A stretch of 64,000 nt of DNA, from contig CAADXH010000098.1 in the NCBI GenBank assembly GCA_900752975.1, forward strand, positions 58-64,057, in the 5' to 3' direction. The DNA comes from Bacilli bacterium (GTDB lineage Bacteria; Bacillota_I; Bacilli_A; ML615J-28; CAG-313). A program made the translations under genes and the position numbers. Below, one piece after another: positions 1-36,601 of the stretch; position 1 is the stretch's first letter; each line of letters opens with the position of its first letter. Under the pieces are notes generated by a model. It made no database searches. It was not told the origin of the DNA and saw only the letters and a program-made list of their open reading frames with translations.

Positions 1-56
1 TTCATAGGTTATTTAACAGCCCCTTTTTTGATTATATTTATGACTTTTTATCTATT

Positions 57-3000
57 TTACCATTCAATAATAGTATCTTTAATAGTTTTACCATTTACGA
101 TATACGTGAAAACTTTTTTGCCAGTGTTTTCTTCATATTCTAGTGTGAAAAATTCAACAGCCATGTACTTTCCTGCATCACCCGTTGCTACAAAGTTTGC
201 ATCAGTTTGATTAGTGGTAAAAAAGTAAAAGTATACAGTATATTGATATTTAGAAACGCCATTTTCAGTAGTGTGAGCAATAGAAATTGAAGTATTATCT
301 GAAACTGTAATTGTACTTATTTCATACCACTTTATATCAGAAGTATTGCTATAAACTTTTTCAATTCCTGAAGCATTATGGACGATTTTAACTTCATCAT
401 CGGTAATCGTTACAGTACATTCTTTAGTTAAGAAATCACGACATTCAGCTTTTGTTAATTGTTTTGAAGTACCATCATTATAATTTACCACTAATAAATG
501 CATATAATTAATTAAATCATCAAGTTTTTTAGTATCCTTGTAAAGCACGCCACTTATGAAAAGTTCTAAATCTAACACATTTTTTGCGGTTGCATTTGAA
601 TACCATGTTGCCGTCATTGTTGCTGATACACCTTTAAAACTAATTTGTAGTGGATGTTCGCCAACTTCAGTAGGAACATTTTCAAAGGTTATGTAGTTTA
701 GAATGCTATCAGTAATAGCTTTATTTTCAAGATATAAGTTAATAATCGTTGAACTCGTTTCAGCTCTAAAATTAACCCTAATTAATTGATTAATAATTGT
801 ACCATTTAAATCATCAATATTTAAACGTGCATCACTAGTTAAAGTGTAATTAAAATAAACGGTATAGTCACTGCTTTTAAGTATTGTGAATGCCTTAACT
901 TGTTCTCCACCAATACTAAATACAATTTGATCTTTTTCTCTAACGATATCAATATAATTATGATATTTTTGATACATATTTAATGAGCTAGAATTAACTA
1001 TTAGATTATTATTAAATCTAATATTCGCAACAATACCATTAAAAAGGTCTTCATCACTAAAATCATTAACAAATTCTGGAAGTGCACTATCATTATTATA
1101 AAATTCGAGTGTTGAATTATAGATACTTAAGCCGAAGAAAACATTATAAGCGGTATATTCGGCGCCATGTGCTCTAAAAATTATCGTATTTTCAGCAACA
1201 TTTCTAACTACTTCAACATTTTCCTTTGCCCATTTATAGGCTTCATCATCTACTAGATAGCCAGAATAATATGAGCCGTAAAAGGTAATTCTAGTGATTA
1301 ATCTAAGAATATCATCATCAGTTTCATCAGTTAATAGTAAATTATATTCACTAAGCGTAACGTCTATATTAGATAAAGCAAGAAATTCTTCTTTTTCAAT
1401 AATATTTACACTATTCTCAAATGTAAATGTTTCATTATTTAGGGTATCACGAACCATAAGTTTAAAAGTATTACTACCTAATTTAACTTCTCCAAGCGGT
1501 TCAAAAGTAATTTCAAATGGAAGTTCATATTCCTTAATTCTTTCTAAAGCTTTCTCGTAAGTTGATTGGATACTATATTCATCATCTACACAAGTAATGT
1601 ATATAATAAGTTGATCATTAAAATTTTTATTTTCTACATAGTTATATGACATTGAAAACGCAACACTCTTAATTTTTTTGGCATCACTTAGCGGATGCAC
1701 ATAAATTTCAGTCTCAAAGTTATAGCCATTCACTGTAATTGTAACATTTTGTGTTCCTTCTTTATTTTTATCAAGACCAGTAATGTTGGCTTCATCAAAT
1801 GATAAGTATTGATAATTATTATATTGCCAAACAAGTTTACCAGTTTCTTCTAGGGCTTCTACGTTAATATGGTAATTATATTCAACCGCAATTTGACCAG
1901 TCGCAGGAATATCTTTACCTACAAAAAGTTCATAGTTAAAATCTACTTTATAGTCTGTAACTACTGGATTTTCTAAATCAATTACGTAGTATTCAATTGG
2001 TAAATAGTAGATTCCATATTCATCTAAATCCATGGTTAGGATACCCATTTTTTTACCAACTGTTGAAATATCAGGATTTTCAATTTTTAGTTTAGCTGTG
2101 TCAAGTTCAACTGAATATGCATAACCTGTCATCATATCAACAATAGTTACAATATAATGGAACCATTTATTTGGATAAACATTATTATTAAGATCATAAA
2201 CAAACAAATCTGTTATTAAATTTAGTTCACCTGGTGATATTACATAATCGTGTTCTACACCTTCAACAAAATAAGCAATACTCATTGTCATATTATCAAT
2301 AGTAACTTCAAGTAATTTCGCACCAACCGTTGAAGTATCAAAAATTGTAAGTAAATTAACTGCTAATTCAATATCTTGTGAATCGTATTCGCCGTTTGTG
2401 TTAAGTATATACTTATAAAGTTTAATAATATCCTTAAATTGTTCAACAAATTCTTCTTTTGTGGTATTTTGTTTTACAATTATTTCGTCTTCTAAATTGT
2501 ATCCAAGTTTTTTGGTAGGTTTCATAATACCTTGAAGTTCATCTACATATGATATTAAATCTTCGTCTGTGGTTTTACTTAAATCAACATTTGCAAGTTT
2601 AGTAATTAATGCGAAAACTGCAGTTGAAGAAATGTTATTACCATCATTTTCACAAAGAATATTAAGTAAATTATTTAATTGTAATTTTTCAGCTGTTGAT
2701 AGTTTACTAATTTCCGTACTTAGTATTTTAGAGACAACAACTAAACTATGACCTAAATCTTCCTTTGTTTCATTTGTAAGTGATGAATTATCAAGATCAG
2801 TGATTAACATTATAGCATTTAATGTTTCCTCGATATCATCTTTATCTTCTAGTTTAATATTTTTTAAATAATTAGTTACAATTTTAACAGCTGGATCAAT
2901 ATTTTTAATTATTTCAATTATATTAAGCTTTTCAAAATATTCTTCGACATTTTCAAATTTTTTTCCCAACATAGTAGATACAATTGTCAAACATGTATTT

Positions 3001-3992
3001 AAAGTATTCTTACCTATTCTTTGGAATAATCCATCAATAATTTCACCAACATTATTAAGGTTTGTGATGAATTCTTCATTAATTTCAAGTGTACCACTTT
3101 CCATGTAACCATTAACTATTTCAATTACACCTGTAATTGTATTCATATCATTTTTAATAACTTTACTGATTTCTTTTAATTCTTGATATCCAGCAATACC
3201 AATATACATAATTTCATTACGGCTCATTAGAACTTGATCAGTATCTTGAATTGTTTTTATCATTGCTTCATATTTAGGATTTTCTTTTAATGATTCAATG
3301 ATAGGTTGAAGTCTTAAATACCATTGTTGATTGTTTTTATATGCGGTAAATATGATTTGACCTATTTGTTCTTCTGAAATAATTGTATCAATATCATAAA
3401 ATACACTTATAATTCTTGATATCATATCAACTATTGCATCGATAAAATTAGAATTTTCTGGATCATATCCATCAAAACAATTTAAAATATGATTTATTAA
3501 TTGGTCTACTTGAGTTTTTGTAAGGCCAGCCTCTTTAAAGACTCTACTTAAAACAAAGCAATAATTTTCTAAATCACTATCTTTTAAGACTTCCTTTATC
3601 AAGTCTTCTAATTTATCATCACTAACTTCACCATTATCAATCTTTACTATCATAATAGCTAATTCACGATAAATATCATCAACATTTAATTCACTTGGTG
3701 TAATTTCAGGATAATCTGGAATTAATAATTGGCCTTTTGGATAAACTGTGATTTCAATATTAAAAGTTTGACCTTCATATTTAATTATTACTTGATATTT
3801 ACCTTCTTTTGAAGTGGTAAATCCAGTTACCATATCCTCAGTAATTTCAATGTAAGTTTCATTACCATTTACAGTTTTTTTGATTCTTCCACCTTTAAAG
3901 GAATCACCAACATTATATAGTTTTTCAAATGAGTATAATTCATATTCTGTACCTTCAACTTTTTTTAATCTATTAATGTTTAATTCCCACAC
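57..3992 (-). CDS. Giant hypothetical surface protein (1311 aa from a GTG). Frame stays open upstream to 4127 and is the same frame as the lipoprotein ORF at 4128-4331.
   Basis: Long ORF with no N-terminal signal peptide and no usable RBS before the GTG. The upstream in-frame translation (KAKAIVYTDKDCSKEAEVPLK...) reads as a continuous protein. Big-like beta segments plus a helical middle region; no recognisable catalytic motif. Confidence 0.5.
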   Translation of the reverse strand: MWELNINRLKKVEGTEYELYSFEKLYNVGDSFKGGRIKKTVNGNETYIEITEDMVTGFTTSKEGKYQVIIKYEGQTFNIEITVYPKGQLLIPDYPEITPSELNVDDIYRELAIMIVKIDNGEVSDDKLEDLIKEVLKDSDLENYCFVLSRVFKEAGLTKTQVDQLINHILNCFDGYDPENSNFIDAIVDMISRIISVFYDIDTIISEEQIGQIIFTAYKNNQQWYLRLQPIIESLKENPKYEAMIKTIQDTDQVLMSRNEIMYIGIAGYQELKEISKVIKNDMNTITGVIEIVNGYMESGTLEINEEFITNLNNVGEIIDGLFQRIGKNTLNTCLTIVSTMLGKKFENVEEYFEKLNIIEIIKNIDPAVKIVTNYLKNIKLEDKDDIEETLNAIMLITDLDNSSLTNETKEDLGHSLVVVSKILSTEISKLSTAEKLQLNNLLNILCENDGNNISSTAVFALITKLANVDLSKTTDEDLISYVDELQGIMKPTKKLGYNLEDEIIVKQNTTKEEFVEQFKDIIKLYKYILNTNGEYDSQDIELAVNLLTIFDTSTVGAKLLEVTIDNMTMSIAYFVEGVEHDYVISPGELNLITDLFVYDLNNNVYPNKWFHYIVTIVDMMTGYAYSVELDTAKLKIENPDISTVGKKMGILTMDLDEYGIYYLPIEYYVIDLENPVVTDYKVDFNYELFVGKDIPATGQIAVEYNYHINVEALEETGKLVWQYNNYQYLSFDEANITGLDKNKEGTQNVTITVNGYNFETEIYVHPLSDAKKIKSVAFSMSYNYVENKNFNDQLIIYITCVDDEYSIQSTYEKALERIKEYELPFEITFEPLGEVKLGSNTFKLMVRDTLNNETFTFENSVNIIEKEEFLALSNIDVTLSEYNLLLTDETDDDILRLITRITFYGSYYSGYLVDDEAYKWAKENVEVVRNVAENTIIFRAHGAEYTAYNVFFGLSIYNSTLEFYNNDSALPEFVNDFSDEDLFNGIVANIRFNNNLIVNSSSLNMYQKYHNYIDIVREKDQIVFSIGGEQVKAFTILKSSDYTVYFNYTLTSDARLNIDDLNGTIINQLIRVNFRAETSSTIINLYLENKAITDSILNYITFENVPTEVGEHPLQISFKGVSATMTATWYSNATAKNVLDLELFISGVLYKDTKKLDDLINYMHLLVVNYNDGTSKQLTKAECRDFLTKECTVTITDDEVKIVHNASGIEKVYSNTSDIKWYEISTITVSDNTSISIAHTTENGVSKYQYTVYFYFFTTNQTDANFVATGDAGKYMAVEFFTLEYEENTGKKVFTYIVNGKTIKDTIIEW

Positions 3993-4331
3993 GGTTTTCT
4001 TTAAAAGTTTATTACCCTTATCTAAAATTACTCTAAAATAAAATTTGTTTTTCCCTTCTACAAGTTTTAGTGGTACTTCTGCTTCTTTAGAGCAATCTTT
4101 ATCTGTGTAAACAATAGCTTTAGCTTTTTATATAACAATATTAGAAGGATTAAATTCACTAACAATATTATCTACATCAAAACTAACTTTAGTTTCTTTT
4201 TTGTTAATAACGACATTTTTAGCGTTTTTTACTTCTTTAATGTCATATTTACTTGTTTCTTTACATCCTGTAAAAACAAGTGATAAACAAATAGCCAGCA
4301 AGAAAATTCTTAACACTCTAATCTTTTTCAT
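57..4331 (-). pseudogene. Large lipoprotein gene interrupted by one in-frame TAA at 4128-4130. Signal peptide plus lipobox ORF at 4128-4331, body at 57-4127.
   Basis: MKKIRVLRIFLLAICLSLVFTGC (lipobox LVFTGC) has a strong RBS (AAAGGAGaaacaaaATG). It continues 45 aa to ...NPSNIVI, then TAA, then the same frame runs 1355 more codons. 4128 and 57 are both congruent mod 3. Confidence 0.45.
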
Positions 4332-4490
4332 TTTGTTTCTCCTTTCATTGAACGAATGTTTATTTATTACATAAGTATTATACCATATTTTGTTCTTTAT
4401 GTCTAGCACTTACATGACTACAAAATTGTGGAGTTGTCGTATTATTATACATTTAAAGTGTTTTGTCTAAATAATTAAATTATGCAAACA

Positions 4491-5780
4491 TTAATTTTTT
4501 AAAGCCGTAATAGGGACAACAAATACACCATCTGATCGAATGTATGCGGCATTAGCTAAACCACAGATAACACACAGAATTTTAGGGGCTTTACCACCAT
4601 TTTCAATAATACTATTACGAGTTTTGATTAGGTTTTTCGCACCTTCATCAATTTTTTTCGCTCCAATTTTTATTTCAAATGCACACCATTCTCCATCCTC
4701 TAATTCAATTACAGCATCTATTTCATTGTTTTTATAATCTTGATAATGATAAAGAATACCACCAAAGGCTTGAGCATATATGGCTAAATCTCTTTCTACT
4801 AATGATTCAAACATAAAACCAAATGTATTCAAGTCACTTAATAGTTTATCAGCTGTAATATTTAATAAGGCACATGCCATAGCAGGATCACTAAAGTGAC
4901 GTTTTTCTTGTTGTTTAACGCGTAATGAAGAACGAAGGTTAGGCGAAAATGGTTTTTGATTATTTAATAAGAATAAACGTTCAAACGCATCTAAATATTT
5001 TTTGATAGTATTTCTGCTCATTGATTCATTATCTTGTTCAATCATATCATTAAGTAATGACATATCAGATACTGTTGTTGATTCATTTCTTGCAAGAGAT
5101 TTTAATAATAGTCTCATTTTATGTCTATCATACTCTATTTCGTTATCAAATCTATTTAAATCTTCCTCAATAATTGTTTCCATATAAGATCTTGGCATTA
5201 AGTGTGCATTATCTTTAGTCGTAGAAATATTTTCAGGCCAACCACCACGAACGATATAATAAGCCAAATCACATAGAGATGTTTCATCTAACATTTGTTC
5301 TTGAAGTGTACCATTACATAATTGTTCTAGACTTATTTTGCCTGATGAATCACCTGATTCAAATAATGACATTGTGTTCATTCTTAATTTAACAATTCTA
5401 CCCGAACCACTATGCATAATTCCTTTAGTTTTAGGCGTTGAAGAACCAGTCAAAATGATTTGTCCTTTTGCATGTCTTTTATCAACTTCTGCTCTTGTCG
5501 CATCCCAAATCGAAGGTACTTCTTGCCATTCATCTATCAATCTTGGGGTATCACCTTGTAAAATTAATAACGGATTTAATTCAGCTAGTTGACGATTAGA
5601 AAAATTATTAGTAGGATCACCAACTAAAAATTCACTATTTGCATGAAATGCTGATGTCCAAGTTTTTCCACACCACTTTGGTCCTTCAATACATATAGCA
5701 CCACTGACTTGCATATATTTATCTATCGTTTTATCGATAATTCGCTTTTTATAATCACTTTTATTTTTAATTACACTCAT
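4491..5780 (-). CDS. AAA+ ATPase, COG1373 family with C-terminal DUF4143-like domain
   Basis: Walker A-like GPKWCGKTW near the N-terminus. Length (429 aa) and layout are typical of the AAA plus DUF4143 family. Confidence 0.7.
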   Translation of the reverse strand: MSVIKNKSDYKKRIIDKTIDKYMQVSGAICIEGPKWCGKTWTSAFHANSEFLVGDPTNNFSNRQLAELNPLLILQGDTPRLIDEWQEVPSIWDATRAEVDKRHAKGQIILTGSSTPKTKGIMHSGSGRIVKLRMNTMSLFESGDSSGKISLEQLCNGTLQEQMLDETSLCDLAYYIVRGGWPENISTTKDNAHLMPRSYMETIIEEDLNRFDNEIEYDRHKMRLLLKSLARNESTTVSDMSLLNDMIEQDNESMSRNTIKKYLDAFERLFLLNNQKPFSPNLRSSLRVKQQEKRHFSDPAMACALLNITADKLLSDLNTFGFMFESLVERDLAIYAQAFGGILYHYQDYKNNEIDAVIELEDGEWCAFEIKIGAKKIDEGAKNLIKTRNSIIENGGKAPKILCVICGLANAAYIRSDGVFVVPITALKN

Positions 5781-5834
5781 ATTAAGCCTCCCTTATATGT
5801 ATATTATAATTAAATATATTTTTTTGTCAAGTCA

Positions 5835-5926
5835 AGTGAGCAATATTTCTTGTTTTGAGTGAGCGATTTTTATAATTTTTAGTGAGCAATATTTCTTACT
5901 TTGAGTGAGCAATATTTTCAAAATTA
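5835..5926. repeat. Four tandem 23-bp direct repeats (AGTGAGCAATATTTCTTGTTTTG-like) upstream of the DUF4143 ATPase gene
   Basis: AGTGAGC starts at 5835, 5858, 5881 and 5904, an exact 23-bp period. Units 1, 3 and 4 are near-identical; unit 2 is diverged. Confidence 0.85.
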
Positions 5927-5962
5927 AAAACGTTAATAGAATCTCTTCTATTAGCGTTTTAC
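5927..5962 (-). terminator. Rho-independent terminator after ntpD
   Basis: Hairpin acgttaataga / tctattagcgt with a U-run on the minus-strand RNA, directly downstream of the ntpD stop. Confidence 0.45.
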
Positions 5963-5972
5963 ACATACTATT

Positions 5973-6608
5973 TTAGTTTAGTTGTTTTTTCAATATTATT
6001 TCTTTACTCTTCATTAGACGAATAATGTTACTTCTTTCATTATCTTCTAGTTTCATTGTAATGAAATGAATATTTTCTTCTAAGTTAGGAATTAACACAT
6101 ATTCAATAGCATTAACACGTCTTCTTGTTTTTTCAATTTCAACCGCAAGCATATCACAGCTTTTTTCAATTTCAGCAAGTTTTACCATTTTATCTACTAA
6201 AGTTGAAAGTCTTAAGACAGATTCATCAAGTTCACATGGTGTAAAGGCAAAACTGTATGTTATGTCAGTACTATCAGATGATTCTACTTTTAGACTTGGA
6301 ACTTTAATGTTCATTATTGTTTTGTCAGAAATATCAAGTTTTAAGTTTTGTGAAGGAACAAGAAAGGCTTCCATCAATCCAGCATAGCTCATTTTAAGGC
6401 GAGCTGAGCCAAAGGTACCAGCTATAAGAGCAAGCTCTGATTCAACAGTTTCTCTTAATTCACGGTTTTGTTTAATTAGATTCATAAACTGTCTAACCAT
6501 TTCATCTTGTTTATCTTTTAGTAATTTATGGCCTCTTGTTGCGGTGGAAAGTTCTTTTTTTAGACGCATTAGTTCCATTCTTGTTGGATTTATTGTCGTC
6601 TGTGCCAT
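5973..6608 (-). CDS. ntpD: V-type ATP synthase subunit D
   Basis: N-terminus MAQTTINPTRMELMRLKKEL is typical of V/A-ATPase subunit D. Last gene of the ntp operon. Confidence 0.9.
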   Translation of the reverse strand: MAQTTINPTRMELMRLKKELSTATRGHKLLKDKQDEMVRQFMNLIKQNRELRETVESELALIAGTFGSARLKMSYAGLMEAFLVPSQNLKLDISDKTIMNIKVPSLKVESSDSTDITYSFAFTPCELDESVLRLSTLVDKMVKLAEIEKSCDMLAVEIEKTRRRVNAIEYVLIPNLEENIHFITMKLEDNERSNIIRLMKSKEIILKKQLN

Positions 6609-6611
6609 AGG

Positions 6612-7991
6612 CTATTCCTCATCTTTTGGTAAGTATTTATCAATGTATTCAAGACTAATACGTTTAAGTTCAGTCTTAGGTAAAATCTTTAATAGTTTCC
6701 AACCAAGATCAAGAGTTTCTTCAATTGAACGATTTGTCTCGTTTCCTTGAGAAACATATTCTTTTTCAAATTCATCAGCAAATTTTGCATATAGTTTATC
6801 AACATCTGATAATGCCGCATCACCCAAAATAACTGATAATTCTTTAGCTTCTTTACCTCTTGCATATGCTGAGAATAATTGGTTCATTGTTTGAGAGTGA
6901 TCTTCTCTAGTTTTACCCTTACCAATACCTTTATCTTTTAATCTACTAAGTGAAGGTAAAACATCAATTGGTGGAACTATACCTTTACGATATAAGTCTC
7001 TAGATAGAATAATTTGTCCTTCTGTAATGTAGCCAGTTAAGTCAGGAATTGGATGAGTTTTGTCATCTTCTGGCATTGTAAGGATTGGAATTTGGGTAAT
7101 TGAACCTTTTTTACCATGGATTCGACCAGCTCTTTCATAAAGTGAGGCAAGGTCTGTATACATGTAACCTGGATAACCACGTCTACCTGGAACTTCTTTA
7201 CGAGCAGCAGATACTTCACGTAAGGCTTCAGCATAATTGGTAATATCAGTAATAATTACTAGAACATGCATACCAAGTTCATAGGCTAAATACTCAGCAC
7301 AAGTTATGGCCATACGTGGTGTTGCGATTCTTTCAATAGCGGGGTCATTGGCAAGATTCATAAATAACACGGATCTTTCAATGGCACCTGACTTTTTAAA
7401 ATCTTCAATAAAGAAATTAGCTTCTTCAAATGTAATACCCACCGCCGCAAACACAACCGCAAAGTCATCATCGGTTCCTCTTACTCTTGCTTGTCTTGCG
7501 ATTTGAACAGCAAGTTTAGAGTGAGGTAATCCAGAACCTGAAAAGATTGGAAGTTTTTGACCACGAACAAGGGTATTTAATCCATCAATGGCACTAATAC
7601 CAGTTTGAATGAACTCAGATGGATAATCACGGGCTACGGGATTTAATGGTGTACCATTAATATCTAATGATGCGGTTGGGATTAATTCATCACCGCCATC
7701 AATAGGGTGACCCATTCCATCAAATACTCGACCTACGATATCTGGAGAAACTTTTAGTTCAATACCATGGCCTAAAAACATCGCTTTGGCTGTGCTAATT
7801 TTTAAACCTTGTGAACTACTATATAATTGAACTAATGCTTTATCTTCATTAATTTCAAGAACTTTACCAAAGCGGATTTCACCATTTGCTTGTCTTATTT
7901 GGACAAGTTCATCATATTTAACACCTTCAACATGATCAACTAACATTAAAGGTCCAACAACTTCCCTAATTGTCTTATATTCTTTAGGCAT
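6612..7991 (-). CDS. ntpB: V-type ATP synthase subunit B
   Basis: 459 aa with a non-catalytic nucleotide-binding fold. It sits immediately after subunit A. Confidence 0.93.
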
Positions 7992-9772
7992 TAAAATTGT
8001 TCTCCTTTCATTAATTCATCATATTCATTATCAATTTCATGGTATAAGGCTTGAATTTTTTCGTCAAATTCATTTTCAGGAATATATTTCATTCTACCAA
8101 TTGATACAAGAGCATTCATCTTAATTATTTTAAAGTATGAAACATTGTTCTTTAAGGCATTAACTCCTTCTTCATACCATTTAAGAATAGCTTTTAACAT
8201 TCCAAATTGTTTCTTTAAAGAAGTGTATGTATCAATTTCATGGAAAGCAATTTGATGTAAATAGTCTTCACGAATGCTGCGGGCCGCATCTAAAGTTAAA
8301 CGATCACTATATTCAAGTGAATCTACACCAACTAGTCGAACAATTTCTTCTAGTTTTGATTCTTCTTGTAAAAGGCCCATCGCTTTACTTACTTGTTTAC
8401 TCCAGTCTTGATCTAGATGTTCATTGAAATATTTGTTAATATCATATAATGAATAACTCTTTAACCAGTCAATAGCTGGGAAGTGACGGCGATATGCAAG
8501 TTGAGCACTTAAGCCCCAGAATACTTTAACAATACGTAAAGTTGCTTGAGATACTGGTTCTGAAGTATCGCCTCCTGGAGGAGATACCGCACCTATTGCG
8601 GTGATAGAACCTTCAGAATTATCACTACCTAAGCATTTAACAAGACCAGCTCTTTCATAGAACTCGGCAAGTCTACTTGAAAGATATGCTGGATATCCTT
8701 CTTCACCTGGCATTTCCTCTAAACGGCCTGACATTTCACGTAATGCTTCGGCCCATCTAGATGTTGAATCGGCCATTATCGCAACGTTATATCCCATATC
8801 ACGGTAATATTCCGCAATTGTAATACCCGTATAAATTGAAGCCTCACGGGCCGCAACTGGCATATTAGAAGTGTTTGCGATTAACACTGTTCTTTTCATT
8901 AGGCTTTCACCAGTTTTAGGGTCTTTTAATTCAGGGAACTCTTGTAATACATCAGTCATCTCATTACCACGTTCACCACAACCTACATAAACGATAATAT
9001 CAGCATTTGCCCATTTTGCAAGTTGATGTTGAACAACGGTTTTACCACTACCGAAAGGTCCAGGTATCGCCGCAATCCCACCAAGGGCGATTGGAAAGAA
9101 TGTGTCAATTACTCTTTGTCCAGTAATAAGGGGAGCCGTTGGCGCCATTTTTTGCTTATATGGACGGCCCTTTCGAACTGGCCATTTTTGAATCATATTT
9201 AATTCTTTAACCTCACCTGTTGGAGTTTGGATTTTCACAATTACATCAGTGATTTTTGCATCACCTTGATGAATCCAAGTAATACATCCACTAACACCAT
9301 TTGGTACCATTATTTTATGTAAAACAACACTTGTTTCTTGAACTGTTCCTAGTGTATCACCACTACTTACTTGATCACCAACTTTTAAGATTGGTTTAAA
9401 CTCCCATACTTTTTCACGATTTAGTTTAGGAACATCAACGCCAAGGGGAATACGATCACCATAAGCATCGCTAATTACTTTTAAGGGACGTTCAATTCCG
9501 TCGTAAATACCTTCAATTAAACCGGGACCAAGTTCAACAGATAGTGGTTCATTTGTAAAATAAACCGGTTCACCAGGACCAAGGCCAGCTGTTTCTTCAT
9601 ATACTTGAATAGAGGCAACATCTCCTCTTAATTCAATTATTTCCCCGATTAGTTTTTTATTACTAACCTTAACAACGTCAAACATTTGGACATCTTTCAT
9701 GCCTTTCGCAATAACTAGTGGGCCTGCTACCTTGGAGATGATACCAATTTGTTGGTTTTCTAATTCTATCAT
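7991..9772 (-). CDS. ntpA: V-type ATP synthase catalytic subunit A
   Basis: Walker [10 protein letters not shown]; 593 aa. Start overlaps the preceding gene by ATGA. Confidence 0.95.
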
Positions 9773-9785
9773 ATTTTACCCCTTT

Positions 9786-10112
9786 CTAAAATATATCAAT
9801 GCCAATAGCTTTTTCAACATTTTCTCTTACTTTTTTCATGCCAATTCCACTATTAACATTATCTAGGGGAAGTGGTAAGATAATAGGATAAGTCATTTGA
9901 CTATACTTTTCTCTAGTTTCTGTAATACTTTCGTATACTTGTTCCGTAACAAAAATAATTTTACAACCAGCTTTATAAAGCCTAAAAATTTCTTTATCAA
10001 TGTCTTCAACATTATTTGAAAAGTATGTTTTAAAACCTACTGCGTTATAAATAGTTATAGATTCATCATTTCCTATTGCGGCGAGGGTCACATTTTCACT
10101 CATCCTCTTCAC
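9786..10112 (-). CDS. ntpF: V-type ATP synthase subunit F
   Basis: 108 aa at the expected position between C and A, with a MSENVTLAAIGN...-type N-terminus. Confidence 0.8.
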   Translation of the reverse strand: MKRMSENVTLAAIGNDESITIYNAVGFKTYFSNNVEDIDKEIFRLYKAGCKIIFVTEQVYESITETREKYSQMTYPIILPLPLDNVNSGIGMKKVRENVEKAIGIDIF

Positions 10113-10119
10113 CTACTTT

Positions 10120-11040
10120 CTAGATTAAATTTTTTAATTCAATGTTTGTATTAGAATATATTAGTCTAACATTTTGTGCTTCTGAAAGTTTTAACAAATA
10201 ATAGTAAATCATTGGACCAATTGTAAATGGATCATCTTTATATTTAGCCATTTCACTAATAATGAAACGGTCAAATAAGATTTCAATATTTGCGATACTT
10301 TCAACTTCTTTTAATGTTTTTGCTAAATGTCCTTCATAATATGGTTCAAGTGTTTTTATTCTATTTTCACTATCTAAGCCATACATGTTTTTTAGTTTAT
10401 CTTTTGTAACAATACCACCATCAATAATCATACTTTCATATTCAGGATAATCCCAATTTAAGTTTTTTGATCTCATCATGGAAATAATGTTTGTTACATC
10501 AATTTTAATGGTAAGGTATTTTCTTAAAATATGATTTTTAGTTTTCTTTAATGCATAATTATAAATAGTATTATCGATTATTGCACTTAATATTTTAGGG
10601 TTATTTGTTTCTTCTACCTTTTCATCTAAAATATTAATTAAATCTTTTTCACTTTTAGTAAGATTATTATATTGATGATTGATTACCGCATCAATTAAAT
10701 CTTCTTTTTTTATTGTGCCATTATCATCAATTAAATCTAATCGGTTTAAATCATATTTTTTTATTTTGTATATTAGTTTTAAATTTTGAGCATCATTCAC
10801 TAAATAGAAAAGATTTGTATCTTCTTTACTTGGAGTGATACTATCAATTAGAGTTCTTACTCTGTGTTTTTCGGAGGCAATTACTTCTTCTAAAGTCGTG
10901 CCTTCACTTCCATAATTCATGGCAAGTAATACTTTCACAAATTCTGTCTTGTCATATTTGGCAAGTACAAGTAATTTATTTCGATCAAGAACTTTGGTTT
11001 CTAAAGCTTTTATCGTTCCGTTAGCATAAGGATAATTCAT
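10120..11040 (-). CDS. ntpC: V-type ATP synthase subunit C (start moved to MNYPYANG...)
   Basis: About 306 aa at the position between E and F. RBS AAAGGAGaataatATG supports the internal Met, which also avoids a 30-nt overlap with ntpE. Confidence 0.8.
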   Translation of the reverse strand: MNYPYANGTIKALETKVLDRNKLLVLAKYDKTEFVKVLLAMNYGSEGTTLEEVIASEKHRVRTLIDSITPSKEDTNLFYLVNDAQNLKLIYKIKKYDLNRLDLIDDNGTIKKEDLIDAVINHQYNNLTKSEKDLINILDEKVEETNNPKILSAIIDNTIYNYALKKTKNHILRKYLTIKIDVTNIISMMRSKNLNWDYPEYESMIIDGGIVTKDKLKNMYGLDSENRIKTLEPYYEGHLAKTLKEVESIANIEILFDRFIISEMAKYKDDPFTIGPMIYYYLLKLSEAQNVRLIYSNTNIELKNLI

Positions 11041-11041
11041 A

Positions 11042-11659
11042 TTATTCTCCTTTACTAAACAACTTTCCCGCAATCTCAGGTTCTAGTTTTGTTTTTAATT
11101 CATCTAATAAAACTTCATATGAATTGTCAATGTCATAGTATTTACTAGCAATAATAAAGCCACCTTTAATATTTGCTTTAGTAGTACTAAGAATTAGATT
11201 ATATTTGTTATCTAATAATTTATCTAACTTATTATCATGATTACTTGAAAATAATTGTTGATATTTTACATAATCATTTTCATTTACCATTATTTCTTCA
11301 TGACCTTCAAGTTTTACTTTCTTTAAACTAGTTGTTACAAACTTAACTAAGTCCTCATCATTCATTTTGCAAAGTCGGTTTAAAGCTTCCTTAAATGTAT
11401 CGTTGATAATTGATTTTTGACTTGCTAAAACACTTTGTTTTTTAGCTTGTTCAAGTTCTGCTTTTTTAGTTTTTATCGCATCATCACACTTTAACTTTGC
11501 ATCACTAATTACTTGTTTGATTTTTTCATTTGTTTCATTCATAACTTGTTCAGTTATATTACTTGCTTTAATGTTGCCTTCTTCTTTGATTCTTGATGCT
11601 TCATCTAAAGCATTGGCAATTATTTTATCATATACTGAACTATTACCCACGTTATTCAC
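11042..11659 (-). CDS. ntpE: V-type ATP synthase subunit E
   Basis: 205 aa, charged coiled-coil stator-type sequence, in operon position. Confidence 0.8.
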   Translation of the reverse strand: MNNVGNSSVYDKIIANALDEASRIKEEGNIKASNITEQVMNETNEKIKQVISDAKLKCDDAIKTKKAELEQAKKQSVLASQKSIINDTFKEALNRLCKMNDEDLVKFVTTSLKKVKLEGHEEIMVNENDYVKYQQLFSSNHDNKLDKLLDNKYNLILSTTKANIKGGFIIASKYYDIDNSYEVLLDELKTKLEPEIAGKLFSKGE

Positions 11660-12139
11660 CTATTTTAATGCGAAAATTAGCATTATACTTACAATTAGGG
11701 AAAGGATAGCGTAAGTTTCAACAAGTACTGCCATAGTAATACCTTTGCCTGATGCTTCAGGTTGTTTTGCAGTCATCATAATACCAGATGTTGCAACTTT
11801 ACCTTGGAATATTGCTGAAATTAAGCCATTAATAGCGATTGGCATAAATACTGCGAAATATGCCCAACCTTGAGTTGTTGTTAAGGCAAATGCTGTAGCG
11901 GCGTCTCCACCTAATAATCCAACTTGAATCATAAATAAGAAAGTTGTTAAGAATCCGTATAACCCTTGAGTACCAGGTAAAATTTGAAGTACTAATAATT
12001 TACCGAATAATTCAGGTTTTTCTGATGTAACACCAGCTGCGGCTTTACCACACATTTGTACACCTAATATTGAACCAATACCAGGTAAAATTGTTCCGAG
12101 TGCTGCTCCTATAAGAGCAATAATTGTTCCATTTGTCAT
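11660..12139 (-). CDS. ntpK: V-type ATP synthase proteolipid subunit K (c-ring)
   Basis: 159 aa, four hydrophobic helices, glycine-rich GxGxG segments typical of c/K subunits. Confidence 0.9.
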   Translation of the reverse strand: MTNGTIIALIGAALGTILPGIGSILGVQMCGKAAAGVTSEKPELFGKLLVLQILPGTQGLYGFLTTFLFMIQVGLLGGDAATAFALTTTQGWAYFAVFMPIAINGLISAIFQGKVATSGIMMTAKQPEASGKGITMAVLVETYAILSLIVSIMLIFALK

Positions 12140-12151
12140 TTTTTTCTTCTC

Positions 12152-14029
12152 CTATTCTTCTTTTATTTCTTTTATATATTTAGTTTCAATTGATAACGGT
12201 TTAAAGTCAACCCCGCCACCTTCATAGAATTTGCCATAAAACTCAATGTATTGAAGCCTACTATCATGTACATAGGCTGATAATAATCCTAAAACTAAGT
12301 TAAATACATGGCCTACTAAGAAGATAATCGCTGCGAAAATCATGCCAACAACACTACCACCAACCATCTGGGCTAGTGTGTTCATTACTACCGCAACCGC
12401 AGCACTTGACATCGCAAGAGCCATTATTCTTGAATATGATAGTAAATCTCCCATATAAGATGTCACATCATATAGACCTAGAATTCCACCAAGGGCTTTT
12501 CCAAGAATTGATTTTTTAGTATGTCCAGCAAAGAGGATGATTAGTAAAACTCCTATTCCTACCATTACGATGCCAACCATACTATTTAGGAAATACGCAC
12601 CTATTCCTAAAAGGATTAAAATCCAACTTACGTTTTTCGCAAGCATATCAATGATATTTCCGTCTTTAATGTTTTCAATCATTTTCACCACAAGTCCGGT
12701 AATTAAATGTAGTGCGCCAATCGCAACTGATACTAGTAGCATTTTGATTGGGTCTTCCATTGGATTAAACCAATACCAAACATTTAATCCAAAATCAGTT
12801 TGAGGATTAAAACCAAAGTAACTACCAAACATAATTCCCCAAAAAATCGTAGGAACCCCTGAATACATGATAATATTCATTAGTTTTAAAGTATTTCCTT
12901 TTGGTTTCATTAGTTTTTTAAGAATTAAGCAAAATACTATCATCATGATACCATATCCTGCATCACCCATCATCATTCCAAATAAGAACCAGTACCATAC
13001 TGACATAACGGGGTTAGGGTCTAACTCTTTACTATTAGGCTTAGAAAACATATCCGTGATTGTTTCAAATTGACTAACAAACTTTTTATTCTTAGTATAT
13101 GTTGGTACAACTTCATCATCAGTTGGATCAGTAAACTCAATATCGTAGTATTCTGTTTGTTCTTGAACTGCTTTTTCTACTTCTTCTAAAGTATCTATTC
13201 TAACCCAACCTTCAATCACGATTGTTTCAATTGTTTTTTCATATTTAACATTGTCTATTGCATCTTGAGTTAAAATCTGATCACTCAAAACTTTAAATTC
13301 TTCAATATTACCTGAAAGAGTTTTTAGTTTTTCTGCGATGTCTTCACACTCTTTTTCTTTACTTTCAATTTGCTTTTTTAATGTTTCAATATAAGTTTTA
13401 ATAGTAACATCAAGAACTGGTAATTTATAATCATTAAATTCATAACGACTTAATGCATCTTTTAGTTGTTTTTCATCATCAATATAACAAACTACAATTA
13501 CACCACTTATATTTTTATATGATGGAAGAATAATACTTTCAAAACTAGCAATTTCATCATCTTGTTTAAATTTCTCAACATACCTAGTTGGCATAGTTCC
13601 AATATGAAAAATTGCATTTTTAGTGTTTTTAATTTGATTTGGAATCATATCAAGTTCATTCCAAATCATTAATGATTCAATTTCATCAATAATTTCTTTA
13701 ATTTGTTGTTTTAATTCACTAAGATTATTTTGATAATTCTCAATTTCACTAACTTCATCAATAGTCTTTTGTGATACATTCGTAAAATCTTTATAATCAA
13801 TCGTTTGATAATCTCCAAATAAGCCTTTTTTCTTTTGGTATTTTCCCGCAAACTTAATGGTTTCTTCAACTTTATCATGTAACGCTCCATTTAGATGTGC
13901 CGATGTTGTTGATTCTCCATCTTCTTTATTGATTATCATGATTACACCATATTTTTGAAGTGACTTAATGACTTTCTCATAATCATCTTTTAAAATAACA
14001 ATCTTAGCTTTTTTCATTTTTACAATCAT
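12152..14029 (-). CDS. ntpI: V-type ATP synthase subunit I (membrane a-subunit)
   Basis: 625 aa with a soluble N-terminal half and a polytopic C-terminal half, in operon position. Confidence 0.9.
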   Translation of the reverse strand: MIVKMKKAKIVILKDDYEKVIKSLQKYGVIMIINKEDGESTTSAHLNGALHDKVEETIKFAGKYQKKKGLFGDYQTIDYKDFTNVSQKTIDEVSEIENYQNNLSELKQQIKEIIDEIESLMIWNELDMIPNQIKNTKNAIFHIGTMPTRYVEKFKQDDEIASFESIILPSYKNISGVIVVCYIDDEKQLKDALSRYEFNDYKLPVLDVTIKTYIETLKKQIESKEKECEDIAEKLKTLSGNIEEFKVLSDQILTQDAIDNVKYEKTIETIVIEGWVRIDTLEEVEKAVQEQTEYYDIEFTDPTDDEVVPTYTKNKKFVSQFETITDMFSKPNSKELDPNPVMSVWYWFLFGMMMGDAGYGIMMIVFCLILKKLMKPKGNTLKLMNIIMYSGVPTIFWGIMFGSYFGFNPQTDFGLNVWYWFNPMEDPIKMLLVSVAIGALHLITGLVVKMIENIKDGNIIDMLAKNVSWILILLGIGAYFLNSMVGIVMVGIGVLLIILFAGHTKKSILGKALGGILGLYDVTSYMGDLLSYSRIMALAMSSAAVAVVMNTLAQMVGGSVVGMIFAAIIFLVGHVFNLVLGLLSAYVHDSRLQYIEFYGKFYEGGGVDFKPLSIETKYIKEIKEE

Positions 14030-14334
14030 GAGTCTATCACCTTCTTCATAATGAAATCAACCGTTTCATTAAGGTGGATTTTTGCAAGATTTTGATTATT
14101 TGTGTTAATTTCATCGCTTTCTTTAACTGAAGTAGCTACTAGTTCTTTAATGATACTATCATTTTCTTCATACATTTTTTGAACTTGTCTTTTTGCTTCA
14201 TTCATCATTTCTTCAGTTTTTAAAAGATTATCTTTGTTAACTTTTTCAAGCATTTCACTGACTTCCTGTTTAGCTTCAAGTTTAATTGTCTCAGCCTTTT
14301 GTTCAGTTTCGTTAATCTTTTCTAATATTGTCAT
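14026..14334 (-). CDS. ntpG: V-type ATP synthase subunit G/H (small coiled-coil stator subunit)
   Basis: 102 aa, highly charged helical protein. First gene of the operon; its stop overlaps the ntpI start. Confidence 0.6.
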   Translation of the reverse strand: MTILEKINETEQKAETIKLEAKQEVSEMLEKVNKDNLLKTEEMMNEAKRQVQKMYEENDSIIKELVATSVKESDEINTNNQNLAKIHLNETVDFIMKKVIDS

Positions 14335-14370
14335 TATCTCACCACCTTTACATTTTCGCTATGCTTTATT

Positions 14371-14399
14371 ATTATACTAAATTTCAATCTTTTTTGCAA
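14371..14399 (-). promoter_or_regulatory. Sigma-A type promoter for the ntp operon (TTGCAA-17-TATAAT)
   Basis: -35 TTGCAA at 14394-14399 and -10 TATAAT at 14371-14376 on the minus strand, 17-bp spacer, about 35 nt upstream of ntpG. Confidence 0.45.
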
Positions 14400-14441
14400 G
14401 TCAAAAGTTGTTATCAAGACAGACTTCTTCAATTTGTCTAT

Positions 14442-15083
14442 TTAAAATATTTTATGAATATTTTTATTTTCACCAATAATGAACAACCGCATATTTTGAG
14501 TTAACTCAATATTAGGTGTAATTAATGCATTTAATTTATCATTAGTTTTAATAGCTACAATACTAATTTGGTGTTTTTTACGCACATCAATTTCACCAAT
14601 TGTTTTCCCTTGCCAATTGTTAGGAACCTCAACTTCATATATCGCGTGTTCGTTATCAAGTTCCGTATAATCTAAAATATAATTAGAACCATAACGAATA
14701 GCCGTCCACATAGCAACCTGCTTTTCAGGGTAAATTACTTCATCGGCTCCATTACGTAACAGTATTTTTTCTTGTAAATCTCGTTCGGCTCTTGATACTA
14801 CTTTTTTCGCGCCTAATTCCTTTAAAAGAGCTGTTGTTTCAACTGAGCTTTGAAAATCATTACCAATTGTCACTATGCAAACATCAAAATTTCTAATTCC
14901 AAGGGTCTTTAAAAATAATTCATTAGTTGTTTCTCCAATTAATGCATTAGTAACATATGGTAAGCATTCATTTACCTTATCTTCACATCTATCAACAAGC
15001 ATTACTTCATGTCCCATTTTTTGTAATTGCACCGCAATATTTTTTCCAAATCTTCCTGCTCCTATTAATAATATTGATTTCAT
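14442..15083 (-). CDS. ktrA: K+ uptake system NAD-binding peripheral subunit (TrkA/KtrA family)
   Basis: MKSILLIGAGRFGKNIAVQL Rossmann (TrkA-N) motif. Start placed at the internal Met, which has AGGAGG 9 nt upstream. Confidence 0.8.
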   Translation of the reverse strand: MKSILLIGAGRFGKNIAVQLQKMGHEVMLVDRCEDKVNECLPYVTNALIGETTNELFLKTLGIRNFDVCIVTIGNDFQSSVETTALLKELGAKKVVSRAERDLQEKILLRNGADEVIYPEKQVAMWTAIRYGSNYILDYTELDNEHAIYEVEVPNNWQGKTIGEIDVRKKHQISIVAIKTNDKLNALITPNIELTQNMRLFIIGENKNIHKIF

Positions 15084-15096
15084 ATAATTCATCCTC

Positions 15097-16437
15097 CTAT
15101 CCAATCGCTATTTTTTCTTGTGGCAACCTATATAAATTGTTACTATTATTATTTTTATATGTTGAAGCAAAAATAAAAGTCAAGGCTCCTACCCGGCCAA
15201 AGAACATCAAAACAATCAAAATTATATGCGATACTATGCATAAATTTGGCGTAACTCCTAACGATAATCCAACAGTACCAATTGCCGATGCGGTTTCAAA
15301 AAGAGCATAAGATAGTGATATACCATCTAACATATGAATCACAATACCACATCCTAAAAAAAGCACAAGATAAATGACTAAGATAGTGCAAGCATTGCGA
15401 ATAGTTTGATTATCAATTCTTCTTCTAAAAAAAGTTACATCATTATTTTGATTGAACACAGAAAAAGCATTTGCAAAAACCACAACAAATGTAGTTACTT
15501 TCATTCCTCCAGCTGTGGATCCTGGAGCACCTCCTATCAACATTAAACCAATCATTATCGCTCGTCCGCCATCTGACATTTCTGCTAAATCTTTTGTATT
15601 AAAACCAGCTGTACGAGCAGTCACTGATTGAAATAGTGACGCCAGGATTCTTTCTTTAATTTTACAATCTGCATACTCAAAGAAAAAATAATATATTGCA
15701 GGAAATATAATTAAACATATGCTTGTAATAATTATGACTTTACTTTGCATACTATATTTTCTAAAATTAAATTTTTTTTGTTTTATATCATGCCATGTAA
15801 AAAAACCTAGCCCACCAATTATTATCAAAAGCATTATAATAACATTAATAATGATATTATCACTAACGTTCGTTAATGAAGGATACAAATTACTCGTATC
15901 ACCAAGAAGGTCAAAACCAGCATTACAAAAAGCGGAAATAGAATGAAATATTGCGAATCCAATTCCTTTTATTCCATATTCTTGACAAAATGGAAATAAT
16001 AGACAAATTGCTCCAATAAATTCTATAAAAAAAGTTCCAAATACGATAAATTTTATCATTCTAATTACTCCACTTAGACTAGGTAAAGAAAGTGTCTCTT
16101 GAATAGTTGTTCTATTGCTTAATGATATTTTTTTACCAAAAACAATGAAAAATAACATAGTGAGTGTTATTACACCAAGTCCTCCGATTTGGATTAACAT
16201 GATAATTACGATATGTCCAAATATTGACCAATATGACCCAGTATCACGAACGACCAGTCCTGTAACACAAACACACGATGTAGAAGTAAATAATGCATCA
16301 ACAAACGGTGTAACTTTCCCCTCCTTACTAGCAAAAGGTAACATAAGTAGCAATGCCCCAACTAGAATTACTAGGAAGAAACCTAAAACAATAATTTGAA
16401 AGGTATTTAGTTTAAATAATTTTCTTTTTTCAAACAT
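15097..16437 (-). CDS. ktrB: K+ transporter membrane subunit (TrkH/KtrB family)
   Basis: Polytopic membrane protein with repeated pore-loop segments. Start placed at MFEKRKLFKLN, which has GGAGGAcattaaaATG. Confidence 0.8.
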   Translation of the reverse strand: MFEKRKLFKLNTFQIIVLGFFLVILVGALLLMLPFASKEGKVTPFVDALFTSTSCVCVTGLVVRDTGSYWSIFGHIVIIMLIQIGGLGVITLTMLFFIVFGKKISLSNRTTIQETLSLPSLSGVIRMIKFIVFGTFFIEFIGAICLLFPFCQEYGIKGIGFAIFHSISAFCNAGFDLLGDTSNLYPSLTNVSDNIIINVIIMLLIIIGGLGFFTWHDIKQKKFNFRKYSMQSKVIIITSICLIIFPAIYYFFFEYADCKIKERILASLFQSVTARTAGFNTKDLAEMSDGGRAIMIGLMLIGGAPGSTAGGMKVTTFVVVFANAFSVFNQNNDVTFFRRRIDNQTIRNACTILVIYLVLFLGCGIVIHMLDGISLSYALFETASAIGTVGLSLGVTPNLCIVSHIILIVLMFFGRVGALTFIFASTYKNNNSNNLYRLPQEKIAIG

Positions 16438-16537
16438 TTTAATGTCCTCCAACACCAATTTAGTTTTTATTTCACTATGTATTGTCAAATTACTTGTATC
16501 TAGTATACCACAACTAGTGACATTTTTCATTTAAAAT

Positions 16538-33546: not shown

Positions 33547-34914
33547 TCAATTATCACTTTTTTTGCTTTCTTTATTTTTTGGTAATATTAAATTTAAGAC
33601 TATTCCCACAATAGTTGACAAGGCTACACTTGTAAATAATTTCATTCCCGTCTTACTATAAATAGCTGCTCCACCAATACCAATTATAAGAATAGTTGAA
33701 ATGATGATTAAATTTCTAATGTTGTTCAAGTCAACTTTAGCATCTAGTAAAGTTTTAAGACCATTAGCAGCGATAAAACCATATAATATTAAGCATACTC
33801 CTCCCATCACAGCAGGTGGAATAGTTGAAATTAATATAGTAAAAACATTACAAAAAGAAAGTAATATTGCAAAAATTGCAGCAAGACCTGTCACCCATAC
33901 TGATCCAACTTTAGTAAGACCAACAACAGAAGTATTTTCACCATATGATGTGTTTGCAGGACCACCTATCACTCCAGCGAATGCTGTAGCAATACCATCA
34001 CCAAGTAATGTTCGATGTAATCCAGGATCTGATAAATAATCTTTTTTAGTAATTTGTCCAAGTACTTCATGATCACCTATGTGTTCACAAATGGTAGCAA
34101 ACGCAAGAGGAATTACCGTGATAATTGCTCCAAAACTAACTTTATACATGGAAATGCCTAATCCTAATTCTTGGTCTTTCCATCCCATAATTATAAATTT
34201 AGGAACGGCAAACCATTGACTTGGGTTTTTAATTACTGTAGCTAAACTAGTAAAATCAATTAATTTAGCATCACCGTTCGGAATAAAGTTAAAAATGATC
34301 GCAATCACATATCCACCAATAATACCTACTAAGAAGGGAACAACTTTCAAGAATTTTTTTGATAAGATGGCAGTAAATGCAATAATTAATAGTGTTGCAA
34401 GTGCCACTACTATAGCTCTCCAATCGCCATTTTGCACCATACCTGTGTTAGAAATTGCACTGTTTGATAGACCAAGTCCTATTACCATAATCATCGGACC
34501 AATTACAACAGGAGGTAAAATCTTTTTGAGCCAATTTGTGCCAAATATCTTTATAAAGCCAGCCACAATCACATAAATTAATCCAACCACAACAAGTCCC
34601 GTAAGAGCAGGCCCATATGAAGTTATTACATTATTTCCTTTAATATTTGTAGTTACACTTACCGCAAGTATATATTCAATATAAGCAAAACTAGATCCTA
34701 AATAAATGGGAACTTTAGCTTTAGTACATAAAATATAAATTAACGTACCAAATCCAGATGCGAATAACGCAACTGAAATTGGAAGTCCTGTTAAAATAGG
34801 TACTAAAACAGTAGCACTAAACATCGCAAATACATGTTGAAAACTTAATAAAATCCATTTATGAACAGGGGGACGATAGTTTGGTTTTAATGTTTGAAGT
34901 TCGTTTGTTTCCAT
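33547..34914 (-). CDS. NCS2 family nucleobase:cation symporter (uracil/xanthine permease-like)
   Basis: 455 aa. N-terminal region HKWILLSFQHVFAMFSATVLVPILTG matches the UraA/PbuX family signature. Confidence 0.75.
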   Translation of the reverse strand: METNELQTLKPNYRPPVHKWILLSFQHVFAMFSATVLVPILTGLPISVALFASGFGTLIYILCTKAKVPIYLGSSFAYIEYILAVSVTTNIKGNNVITSYGPALTGLVVVGLIYVIVAGFIKIFGTNWLKKILPPVVIGPMIMVIGLGLSNSAISNTGMVQNGDWRAIVVALATLLIIAFTAILSKKFLKVVPFLVGIIGGYVIAIIFNFIPNGDAKLIDFTSLATVIKNPSQWFAVPKFIIMGWKDQELGLGISMYKVSFGAIITVIPLAFATICEHIGDHEVLGQITKKDYLSDPGLHRTLLGDGIATAFAGVIGGPANTSYGENTSVVGLTKVGSVWVTGLAAIFAILLSFCNVFTILISTIPPAVMGGVCLILYGFIAANGLKTLLDAKVDLNNIRNLIIISTILIIGIGGAAIYSKTGMKLFTSVALSTIVGIVLNLILPKNKESKKSDN

Positions 34915-36572: not shown

Positions 36573-36601
36573 CAACGGAAAAAGAGTAACTTAGTTACTT
36601 T

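Follow-up and report, generated by a model that had tools for sequence, protein, structure and literature searches.

Does a long minus-strand frame that is broken by one in-frame stop codon represent a single disrupted gene, two separate genes, one state of a switch, or a fault in the assembly? This question is raised by a 64,000-nt stretch of contig CAADXH010000098.1 (Bacilli bacterium, assembly GCA_900752975.1), referred to here as the window. In the sequence and its translation the frame extends from ATG 4331 to TAA 57-59 and is interrupted solely by TAA 4128-4130, which is codon 68. The open part behind this stop, for which 1355 codons had been given in a sequence-only reading, in fact counts 1356. 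With the base composition of this strand a stop is expected approximately every 11 codons and a run of 1356 open ones has a probability of ~1e-58, while the other two frames across the same stretch contain 129 and 270 stops, indicating that the open frame did not arise by chance. No paralogue of the gene was present within the 64-kb window, and a check for a plasmid origin gave no match. The features of the locus are listed in Table 1.

Table 1. Features of the interrupted lipoprotein gene (coordinates are positions in the window).
Feature	Position	Strand	Remarks
Promoter-like TAGACA-17 nt-TATAAT with TG (extended -10)	4377..4405	minus	predicted, by consensus match alone
Shine-Dalgarno sequence AAAGGAG	4339..4345	minus	7-nt spacer to ATG; also conserved in related loci
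Start codon ATG	4331-4329	minus	direct reading
Lipoprotein signal peptide MKKIRVLRIFLLAICLSLVFTG and predicted lipidated Cys23	4263..4331	minus	Cys23 codon 4265-4263
5' fragment, 67 codons and premature TAA	4128..4331	minus	signal peptide, lipobox Cys23, first half of Ig-like domain 1
Premature TAA, codon 68	4128..4130	minus	mutated base 4129 (coding-strand A, plus-strand T); ancestral TCA (Ser)
3' remainder, 1356 sense codons and natural stop TAA 59-57	57..4127	minus	same frame as ATG 4331
Annotated 1311-aa ORF, GTG start	57..3992	minus	gene-calling artefact downstream of the nonsense codon
Two tandem Ig-like β-sandwich domains	3741..4241	minus	residues ~31-121 and ~129-197; second is Pfam Big_3
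All-α region, family-specific	2517..3686	minus	residues ~216-605; helical in AlphaFold
β-rich Ig-like domains in series, ~800 residues	60..2516	minus	AlphaFold pLDDT mostly 70-90
k-mers around codon 68 for the species (UMGS75-like; flanks ~98-99% identical)			...GTTATATAAAAAGCTAAAG... / ...GTTATATCAAAAGCTAAAG...

The short ORF had been credited with a ribosome-binding site, a signal peptide and a lipobox, and all three, including AAAGGAG and Cys23, can be read directly from the sequence. Bacterial lipoproteins, the substrates of Lgt and Lsp, begin with an n-region that carries positive charge, followed by a hydrophobic h-region and by a lipobox whose Cys falls within roughly the first 35 residues. 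The N-terminus MKKIR-VLRIFLLAICLSLVF-TG-C23 has a charged n-region, a hydrophobic h-region and the lipobox Cys, fitting the PROSITE PS51257-type rule as applied by eye, and Cys23 is invariant throughout the family members. Lipoboxes of a like kind (FITGC, LVSC, VASC) occur on further ORFs in the window. The promoter-like site agrees with the consensus at 11 of 12 positions, making it the top match within positions 1-4600, and no aligned strain differs from the others in the -10 element or the TG. Gene callers report the 5' fragment as a product of its own, 67 aa in length with 44 residues beyond Cys23, which aligns to residues 1-67 of the uninterrupted relative P0001. A length of 45 aa, as had been stated for this ORF, is correct if counted from the lipobox Cys, but from the ATG there are 67 codons.

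The annotated 1311-aa ORF begins with GTG 3992, the first in-frame start after the TAA, located 46 codons on and corresponding to Val114 of the intact protein. Direct reading revealed no Shine-Dalgarno sequence before this GTG, and the N-terminus of the ORF (VWELNINR...) is not a signal peptide, confirming what the sequence-only reading had said about both. The 46 codons separating the TAA from GTG 3992 are conserved coding sequence in the orthologues.

A comparison with orthologues, suggested earlier as a way of checking the split, yielded uninterrupted ORFs of 1424-1448 aa and one of 1252 aa. A stop at codon 68 occurs in 0 of 20 N-terminally complete relatives, which have Ser, Thr or Asn at this position, and the codon is TCA in 7 of the 7 related DNA loci that were read (L002, L003, L004, L005, L007, L009 and L011). 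P0001 is 98% identical and uninterrupted with 1424 aa; P0002 (93%, belonging to a 42-member cluster spread over 15 contigs) and P0003 (92%) are uninterrupted as well (1424-1425 aa), as are P0006-P0008 (41-34% identity), and all six have the same signal peptide. Their alignments (proteins of 1424-1448 aa) span 98-100% of the joined sequence and are collinear across the stop. The idea of a single lipoprotein gene broken by one in-frame TAA was thus borne out, as the orthologues run through the stop position and share the signal peptide and lipobox. The shorter P0005 (1252 aa, with a shorter C-terminus) covers 87% of the joined sequence and also spans the stop position. We considered P0005 as a second nonsense allele and rejected this, as in locus L006 it is ended by a double stop with no C-terminal remnant downstream; P0005 is a naturally shorter orthologue.

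Over 441 nt, comprising the promoter, the ribosome-binding site and codons 1-90, the lone difference between the window and L002, its closest relative, is the C>A exchange at codon 68. The 1356 downstream codons contain no further stop or frameshift, and their dN/dS versus L002 is 0.29. Only this dN/dS value was used; ungapped values for L003-L007 were discarded, since compensating indels render them meaningless. The window-specific codon changes (n=13) comprise 8 non-synonymous, 4 synonymous and 1 nonsense change, too few to distinguish relaxed from purifying selection. Differences between strains cluster as a mosaic at residues 297-311 and 587-745. The flanking genes are common to all close-strain loci (L002-L005 and L009), and the lengths of the upstream genes match between the window's own contig and these loci. 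One scan of JGI metagenomes that accepted either allele returned a single contig, which carries TCA.

The intact product is predicted, from sequence and structural modelling, to be a lipid-anchored surface protein of 1424 residues. Its tandem Ig-like region was modelled by AlphaFold with a mean pLDDT of 79.8, and residues 137-196 match Pfam Big_3 (PF07523) with 39.7 bits versus a gathering threshold of 21.2; a Foldseek search with the N-terminal tandem domains returned tandem-Ig surface proteins. In the helical region AlphaFold confidence is low at residues 285-481, and a profile search with residues 216-700 against 1.84 billion representative proteins found only 4-5 clusters (50% identity). 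The C-terminal ~800 residues gave Foldseek matches to the S-layer proteins SbsC and SbsB, to cadherins and to invasin, with low TM-scores. NCBI labels the relatives as 'bacterial Ig-like domain-containing protein'; a sequence and profile search of the PDB and an NCBIfam search with this protein gave no match, and a search of the literature on RF39/Mollicutes lipoproteins found nothing relevant. The AlphaFold model places the TAA after strand 43-45 and before strand 48-53, midway through Ig-like domain 1, and GTG 3992 within the last β-strand of that domain. The sequence-only reading had put the stop directly behind the signal-peptide module; it in fact follows the Cys at a distance of 45 codons and bisects the domain.

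These observations are best explained by a recent, strain-specific nonsense mutation, Ser68 TCA to TAA, in a lipoprotein gene that is intact elsewhere, giving a null allele and nascent pseudogene; we put the probability of this reading at roughly 0.8. A recent nonsense mutation had been one of three causes offered for the split, and a single changed base together with intact relatives makes it the best fit among them. In molecular terms, one coding-strand C>A transversion (G>T at plus-strand position 4129) would have turned Ser68 (TCA) into TAA. Ribosomes starting at ATG 4331 would then stop after 67 codons and release a prolipoprotein with a mature part of 45 residues, which is probably unstable because it represents only about half of a seven-strand β-sandwich. 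The remaining 1356 codons would stay untranslated except for trace readthrough or weak internal initiation, and any product of the 1311-aa type should remain cytoplasmic, as it lacks an export signal. From the sequence, the allele appears to be functionally null and a very young pseudogene. The absence of any further lesion downstream, together with the dN/dS of 0.29, points to a recent event. As the gene is monocistronic and the next one is convergent with it, neighbouring genes should be unaffected. This is ordinary gene inactivation and involves no new genetic mechanism.

The TAA could instead stem from an error in sequencing or consensus calling, or from a minority variant picked up in assembly, the gene being really intact, which we regard as unlikely. 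The allele is known solely from assemblies of one study, probably of one sample, the C>A substitution forms an A5 run in very AT-rich surroundings, and oxidative damage during Illumina library preparation is a known source of artefactual G>T/C>A changes; such artefacts, however, occur at a low fraction and seldom win the consensus. The identical TAA is present in two ENA assemblies that were built separately, with contigs of 64,309 and 64,104 bp, and a 2204-nt stretch fetched from the second is 100% identical to the window, TAA included. NCBI and Logan both list the split products of 67 aa and 1311 aa, and this agreement between sources argues against a sequencing error. The TAA-bearing assemblies probably all trace to a single study, and very likely to a single sample (ERR414264; LIJU14-1_SAMEA2338651), so that they are independent assemblies but not independent observations. 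Furthermore, no other gene split by an in-frame stop was seen within the 64-kb window, suggesting that the contig is not generally error-prone. A same-frame open pair at 51495 was considered as a second split gene and dismissed, being two normal genes of which the second has its own ribosome-binding site and ATG.

Two other readings take the stop as one state of a reversible ON/OFF switch, or as a stop that is tolerated or used. Phase variation of a surface antigen, which the sequence-only reading had also proposed, would suit a protein that is large, surface-exposed and strain-variable with mosaic differences, a type of target that is often phase-variable. The change is nevertheless a base substitution rather than an indel, leaving the length unaltered and requiring an exact back-mutation for reversal. 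Tandem Repeats Finder detected no simple-sequence repeat near 4128, neither a homopolymer nor a short tandem repeat lies at the site, and a search for an invertible element at the stop gave merely short, weak AT-rich inverted repeats, none of which convincingly brackets the promoter. The remaining strains are all ON with the same TCA. We consider a switch very improbable and do not retain this proposal. Programmed readthrough, a suppressor tRNA or the use of two separate products (a short lipopeptide and a cytoplasmic 1311-aa protein) would agree with the fully open downstream frame and with the two products given by gene callers. Programmed recoding should leave a conserved stop, yet this one is absent from all 20 relatives. 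Among the long ORFs on the minus strand of the window, 34 of 50 end in TAA, the organism's main stop codon; the window contains no tRNA gene, and a reassignment of TAA was rejected because it ends most ORFs in the window. The downstream piece has neither a ribosome-binding site nor a signal peptide and begins inside a β-strand, and the codons between the stop and its GTG are conserved as coding sequence in orthologues. A tolerated or used stop is therefore hardly credible.

A further possibility accepts the nonsense mutation: the allele might be real and selected in the human host, where losing a large, exposed and strain-variable surface lipoprotein would allow this bacterium to evade antibody (IgA) or a phage that has the protein as its receptor. 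We hold this to be doubtful. If it were true, the locus would be a natural knock-out marking a determinant of host or phage interaction in a lineage without genetics.

Returning to the nonsense mutation as such, premature stop codons in inlA of Listeria monocytogenes are a close parallel; they have arisen independently more than once, are common in certain lineages and cause a measured reduction of invasion (reviewed in PMC13297112). In both cases a single nonsense substitution truncates a large surface protein of which other strains of the species have an intact version, resulting in a strain-level loss-of-function polymorphism. In contrast to inlA, there is one allele here, probably from one sample, in an uncultured organism, and since the stop comes so early (codon 68 of 1424) essentially nothing functional should be made. 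Naturally occurring nonsense alleles are thus already known from bacterial surface proteins, and the mechanism is not new.

With respect to its overall build, the intact protein resembles SGBP-B (6e9b), SbsB (4aq1), SbsC (5ftx), EA1 (8opr) and invasin (1cwv) in being, by prediction, a surface chain of Ig-like β-sandwiches. TM-scores to SbsB, SbsC, EA1, cadherins and invasin are 0.1-0.3 and denote a resemblance only, that is, generic Ig-domain similarity. Like Bacteroides SGBP-B, the protein would be anchored by an N-terminal lipidated Cys (predicted here). Unlike SGBP-B and the S-layer proteins, with which the PDB profile search found no sequence homology, it contains a helical region of ~390 residues without a counterpart. 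The match of residues 137-196 links it to Pfam Big_3 proteins, yet Big_3 accounts for <5% of the protein and the rest forms a very small family.

For annotation, the deposited 67-aa and 1311-aa proteins should be treated as pieces of one disrupted gene, a pseudogene, and not as two protein families. A large surface lipoprotein conserved among its relatives is probably missing from this strain. Members of the family are confined to a small group of uncultured, Mollicutes-like Bacilli of the human gut, in which a natural null allele is at best of modest help in judging whether the protein is dispensable.

Translation bore out the coordinates at which the sequence-only reading had placed a split lipoprotein gene; the interrupted frame, its signals and the upstream genes are listed in the table. 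The short ORF, described there as 45 aa, has this length if counted from the Cys but comprises 67 codons from the ATG, and the open frame downstream is 1356 rather than 1355 codons long. This length is far beyond chance because local composition would give one stop per ~11 codons, and with it a probability of ~1e-58 for 1356 open codons; the remaining two frames of the stretch contain 129 and 270 stops. The 1311-aa ORF indeed has neither a ribosome-binding site nor a signal peptide of its own, its GTG lacking a Shine-Dalgarno sequence and an export signal.

Features of the lipoprotein gene and of the genes upstream of it (window coordinates)
Feature	Position	Strand	Remarks
Promoter-like site TAGACA-17 nt-TATAAT, TG before TATAAT	4405-4377	-	best consensus match in region
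Shine-Dalgarno AAAGGAG	4345-4339	-	7 nt before ATG 4331
Lipoprotein-type signal MKKIRVLRIFLLAICLSLVFTG, then Cys23	N-terminus from ATG 4331	-	translation
Premature TAA, codon 68	4130-4128	-	44 residues past Cys23, then stop
Open frame, 1356 codons, same frame after TAA	to TAA 59-57	-	translation
1311-aa ORF, listed mechanically	GTG 3992 start	-	46 codons past TAA; without Shine-Dalgarno
AAA_14/DUF4143 ATPase gene	4491-5780	-	just upstream of lipoprotein gene
V-type ATPase D subunit gene	5973-6608	-	domain hit
V-type ATPase B subunit gene	6612-7991	-	domain hit

A search of 5.8 billion proteins returned eight clusters. Six are uninterrupted (1424-1448 aa; identities of 98, 93, 92, 41, 34 and 34%) and span 98-100% of the joined sequence, one (P0004) is the 1311-aa piece from the window's own contig, and one (P0005, 1252 aa, 70% identity) is an orthologue that is shorter by nature. 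The same signal peptide is found in all clustered relatives, Cys23 being invariant, and position 68 is Ser, Thr or Asn in all 20 N-terminally complete relatives compared and a stop in none. Codon 68 is TCA in seven DNA loci: L002, L003, L004, L005 and L009, which represent five different sequencing runs, L007, the locus of the species representative (UMGS75, contig UQAI01000007.1), and L011, on a JGI metagenome contig. The relatives are MAGs entered as 'uncultured Mollicutes bacterium' or 'Bacilli bacterium'. With orthologues uninterrupted across the stop and TCA in these loci, the claim of one gene split by a single TAA is supported.

The C>A exchange that makes the TAA is the sole difference between the window and L002, its closest relative, in a 441-nt stretch comprising promoter, ribosome-binding site and codons 1-90. 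Identity to L002 is 99.4% in the flanking DNA and 98.7% in the lipoprotein gene, where dN/dS is 0.29 and neither another stop nor a frameshift occurs; the gene appears to have been under purifying selection until very recently. Differences between the two alleles are clustered at residues 297-311 and 587-745 (~3398-3442 and 2097-2572, minus strand). At 15 codons one of the two agrees with L003 and the other with L009, both more distant strains; such a mosaic suggests that alleles of the gene have recombined. The P0005 orthologue of a related species (L006, CAVJDT010000001.1, 4001-7756) is without the last ~170 residues: two stops in a row terminate it and no remnant lies downstream, which means that in this species the C-terminal domain was cleanly deleted or can be dispensed with.

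The AlphaFold model of residues 23-215 (mean pLDDT 79.8) shows two tandem Ig-like beta-sandwiches. Position 68 (model residue 46) falls halfway through domain 1, in the turn that joins strands 43-45 and 48-53, and the GTG of the 1311-aa ORF is residue 114, part of the last strand of this domain (model residues 87-99). All relatives have conserved coding sequence in the 46 codons that separate TAA from GTG; this and the place of both codons within one domain make two separate genes untenable. On this model the 67-aa product would consist of the signal peptide and half a domain, and the 1311-aa product would start mid-strand without an export signal.

The window (30.5% GC) matches, without a difference, a 64,309-bp contig from an assembly of a human-gut metagenome (ENA ERZ919537, run ERR414264, project PRJEB5224). 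The same TAA is present in a second ENA assembly (ERZ28595720, 'LIJU14-1_SAMEA2338651' scaffold_256, 64,104 bp), which is 100% identical over the 2204 nt compared, and NCBI and Logan sources likewise list products of 67 and 1311 aa. An assembler artefact is excluded, as independent assemblies carry the identical TAA. These assemblies very probably derive from one sample, however, which leaves some room for an error or minority variant, be it a read-level issue or within-sample heterogeneity; against an error stand the second assembly and the NCBI and Logan records, and we consider this explanation rather unlikely. Phase switching and functional recoding of the TAA are less probable still, at a few per cent together. 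The phase variant offered by the sequence-only reading finds no footing, since neither a tandem repeat nor a homopolymer-length change is involved at the TAA, and the inverted repeats that surround it and the promoter are short AT-rich sequences with imperfectly matching arms. Programmed readthrough would have to rely on a stop conserved in none of the 20 relatives, the 64-kb window contains no tRNA gene, and no other gene across it is split by an in-frame stop, which also speaks against a switch or recoding; neither phase variation nor programmed readthrough thus finds support. A second candidate split gene at 51495 was rejected as a normal gene pair. Of 50 long minus-strand ORFs in the window 34 end in TAA, 13 in TAG and 3 in TGA, and stop-codon usage therefore looks standard, with TAA as main terminator.

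We thus put the probability that the TAA is a real nonsense allele at about 0.8; as a null allele it is young, strain-specific and of an ordinary kind, comparable to the premature stops known in genes for surface proteins of other bacteria, for example inlA of Listeria (PMC13297112). Ser68 (TCA) became TAA through one C>A transversion in an otherwise intact gene. Translation from the conserved start would end after 67 codons, the protein body would not be made, or only in traces without export signal, and neighbouring genes would be unaffected. What was deposited as 67-aa and 1311-aa 'proteins' is a by-product of annotating the null allele.

Upstream, the genes for the V-type ATPase B (459 aa) and D (211 aa) subunits and the AAA_14/DUF4143 ATPase (429 aa) recur with the same lengths in the window's contig and all close-strain loci, and in related loci a convergent M20 peptidase gene follows, of which the window's contig stops short; the lipoprotein gene thus appears to stand alone between its own promoter-like site and a terminator-like hairpin located 3' of it, just past the window edge. 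Further same-strand ORFs beyond the V-type ATPase genes (region 4491-16530, minus strand) may belong to the operon.

Pfam detected a single Big_3 Ig-like domain (residues 137-196, 39.7 bits), and NCBIfam and PDB sequence-profile searches gave no match, so that no relatives beyond this domain were found in the three databases. In the model of residues 216-1415 (mean pLDDT 71) an all-helical region of ~390 residues, poorly predicted at 285-481, precedes ~800 residues of consecutive beta-rich domains (pLDDT 70-90). Foldseek matched chains of Ig or cadherin domains, with low TM-scores: S-layer proteins SbsB, SbsC and EA1, the Bacteroides surface glycan-binding lipoprotein SGBP-B, cadherins and invasin; no enzyme fold was among the matches. 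The most reasonable reading, from predicted architecture only, is a lipid-anchored elongated surface protein, an adhesin or surface-coat protein. Among 1.84 billion representatives, a profile of residues 216-700 (helical region and C-terminal flank) picked up only 4-5 clusters (50% identity), and all four strong matches are 1424-1444 aa long. The lipoprotein is most reasonably read as restricted to a small clade of uncultured, Mollicutes-like gut Bacilli. The family (window 57-4331 with P0002, P0006, P0008 and P0027) is extremely narrow.

Every window ORF checked, and nearly all long ORFs, lie on the minus strand. Other likely surface-protein ORFs there are 57814-60342, 22751-25519, 45189-46355 and 63545-63934; one encodes an 842-aa BspA-type leucine-rich-repeat protein and three have lipoprotein-type N-termini (FITGC, VASC, LVSC), including a 922-aa 5'-nucleotidase/metallophosphoesterase. 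A purine riboswitch (RF00167, 83 bits; 36591-36692, minus strand) lies immediately upstream of a xanthine/uracil-family permease gene, and three paralogous ORFs of this family follow one another (35046-36500, 33547-34914 and 31828-33282, minus strand). An [FeFe]-hydrogenase-like gene (ATG 51479, within 49797-51990, minus strand) encodes Fe_hyd_lg_C and 4Fe-4S domains and is preceded by two mutually similar small Cys-rich ORFs of ~80 aa each, both starting MI.(.)KVC.GSSC.
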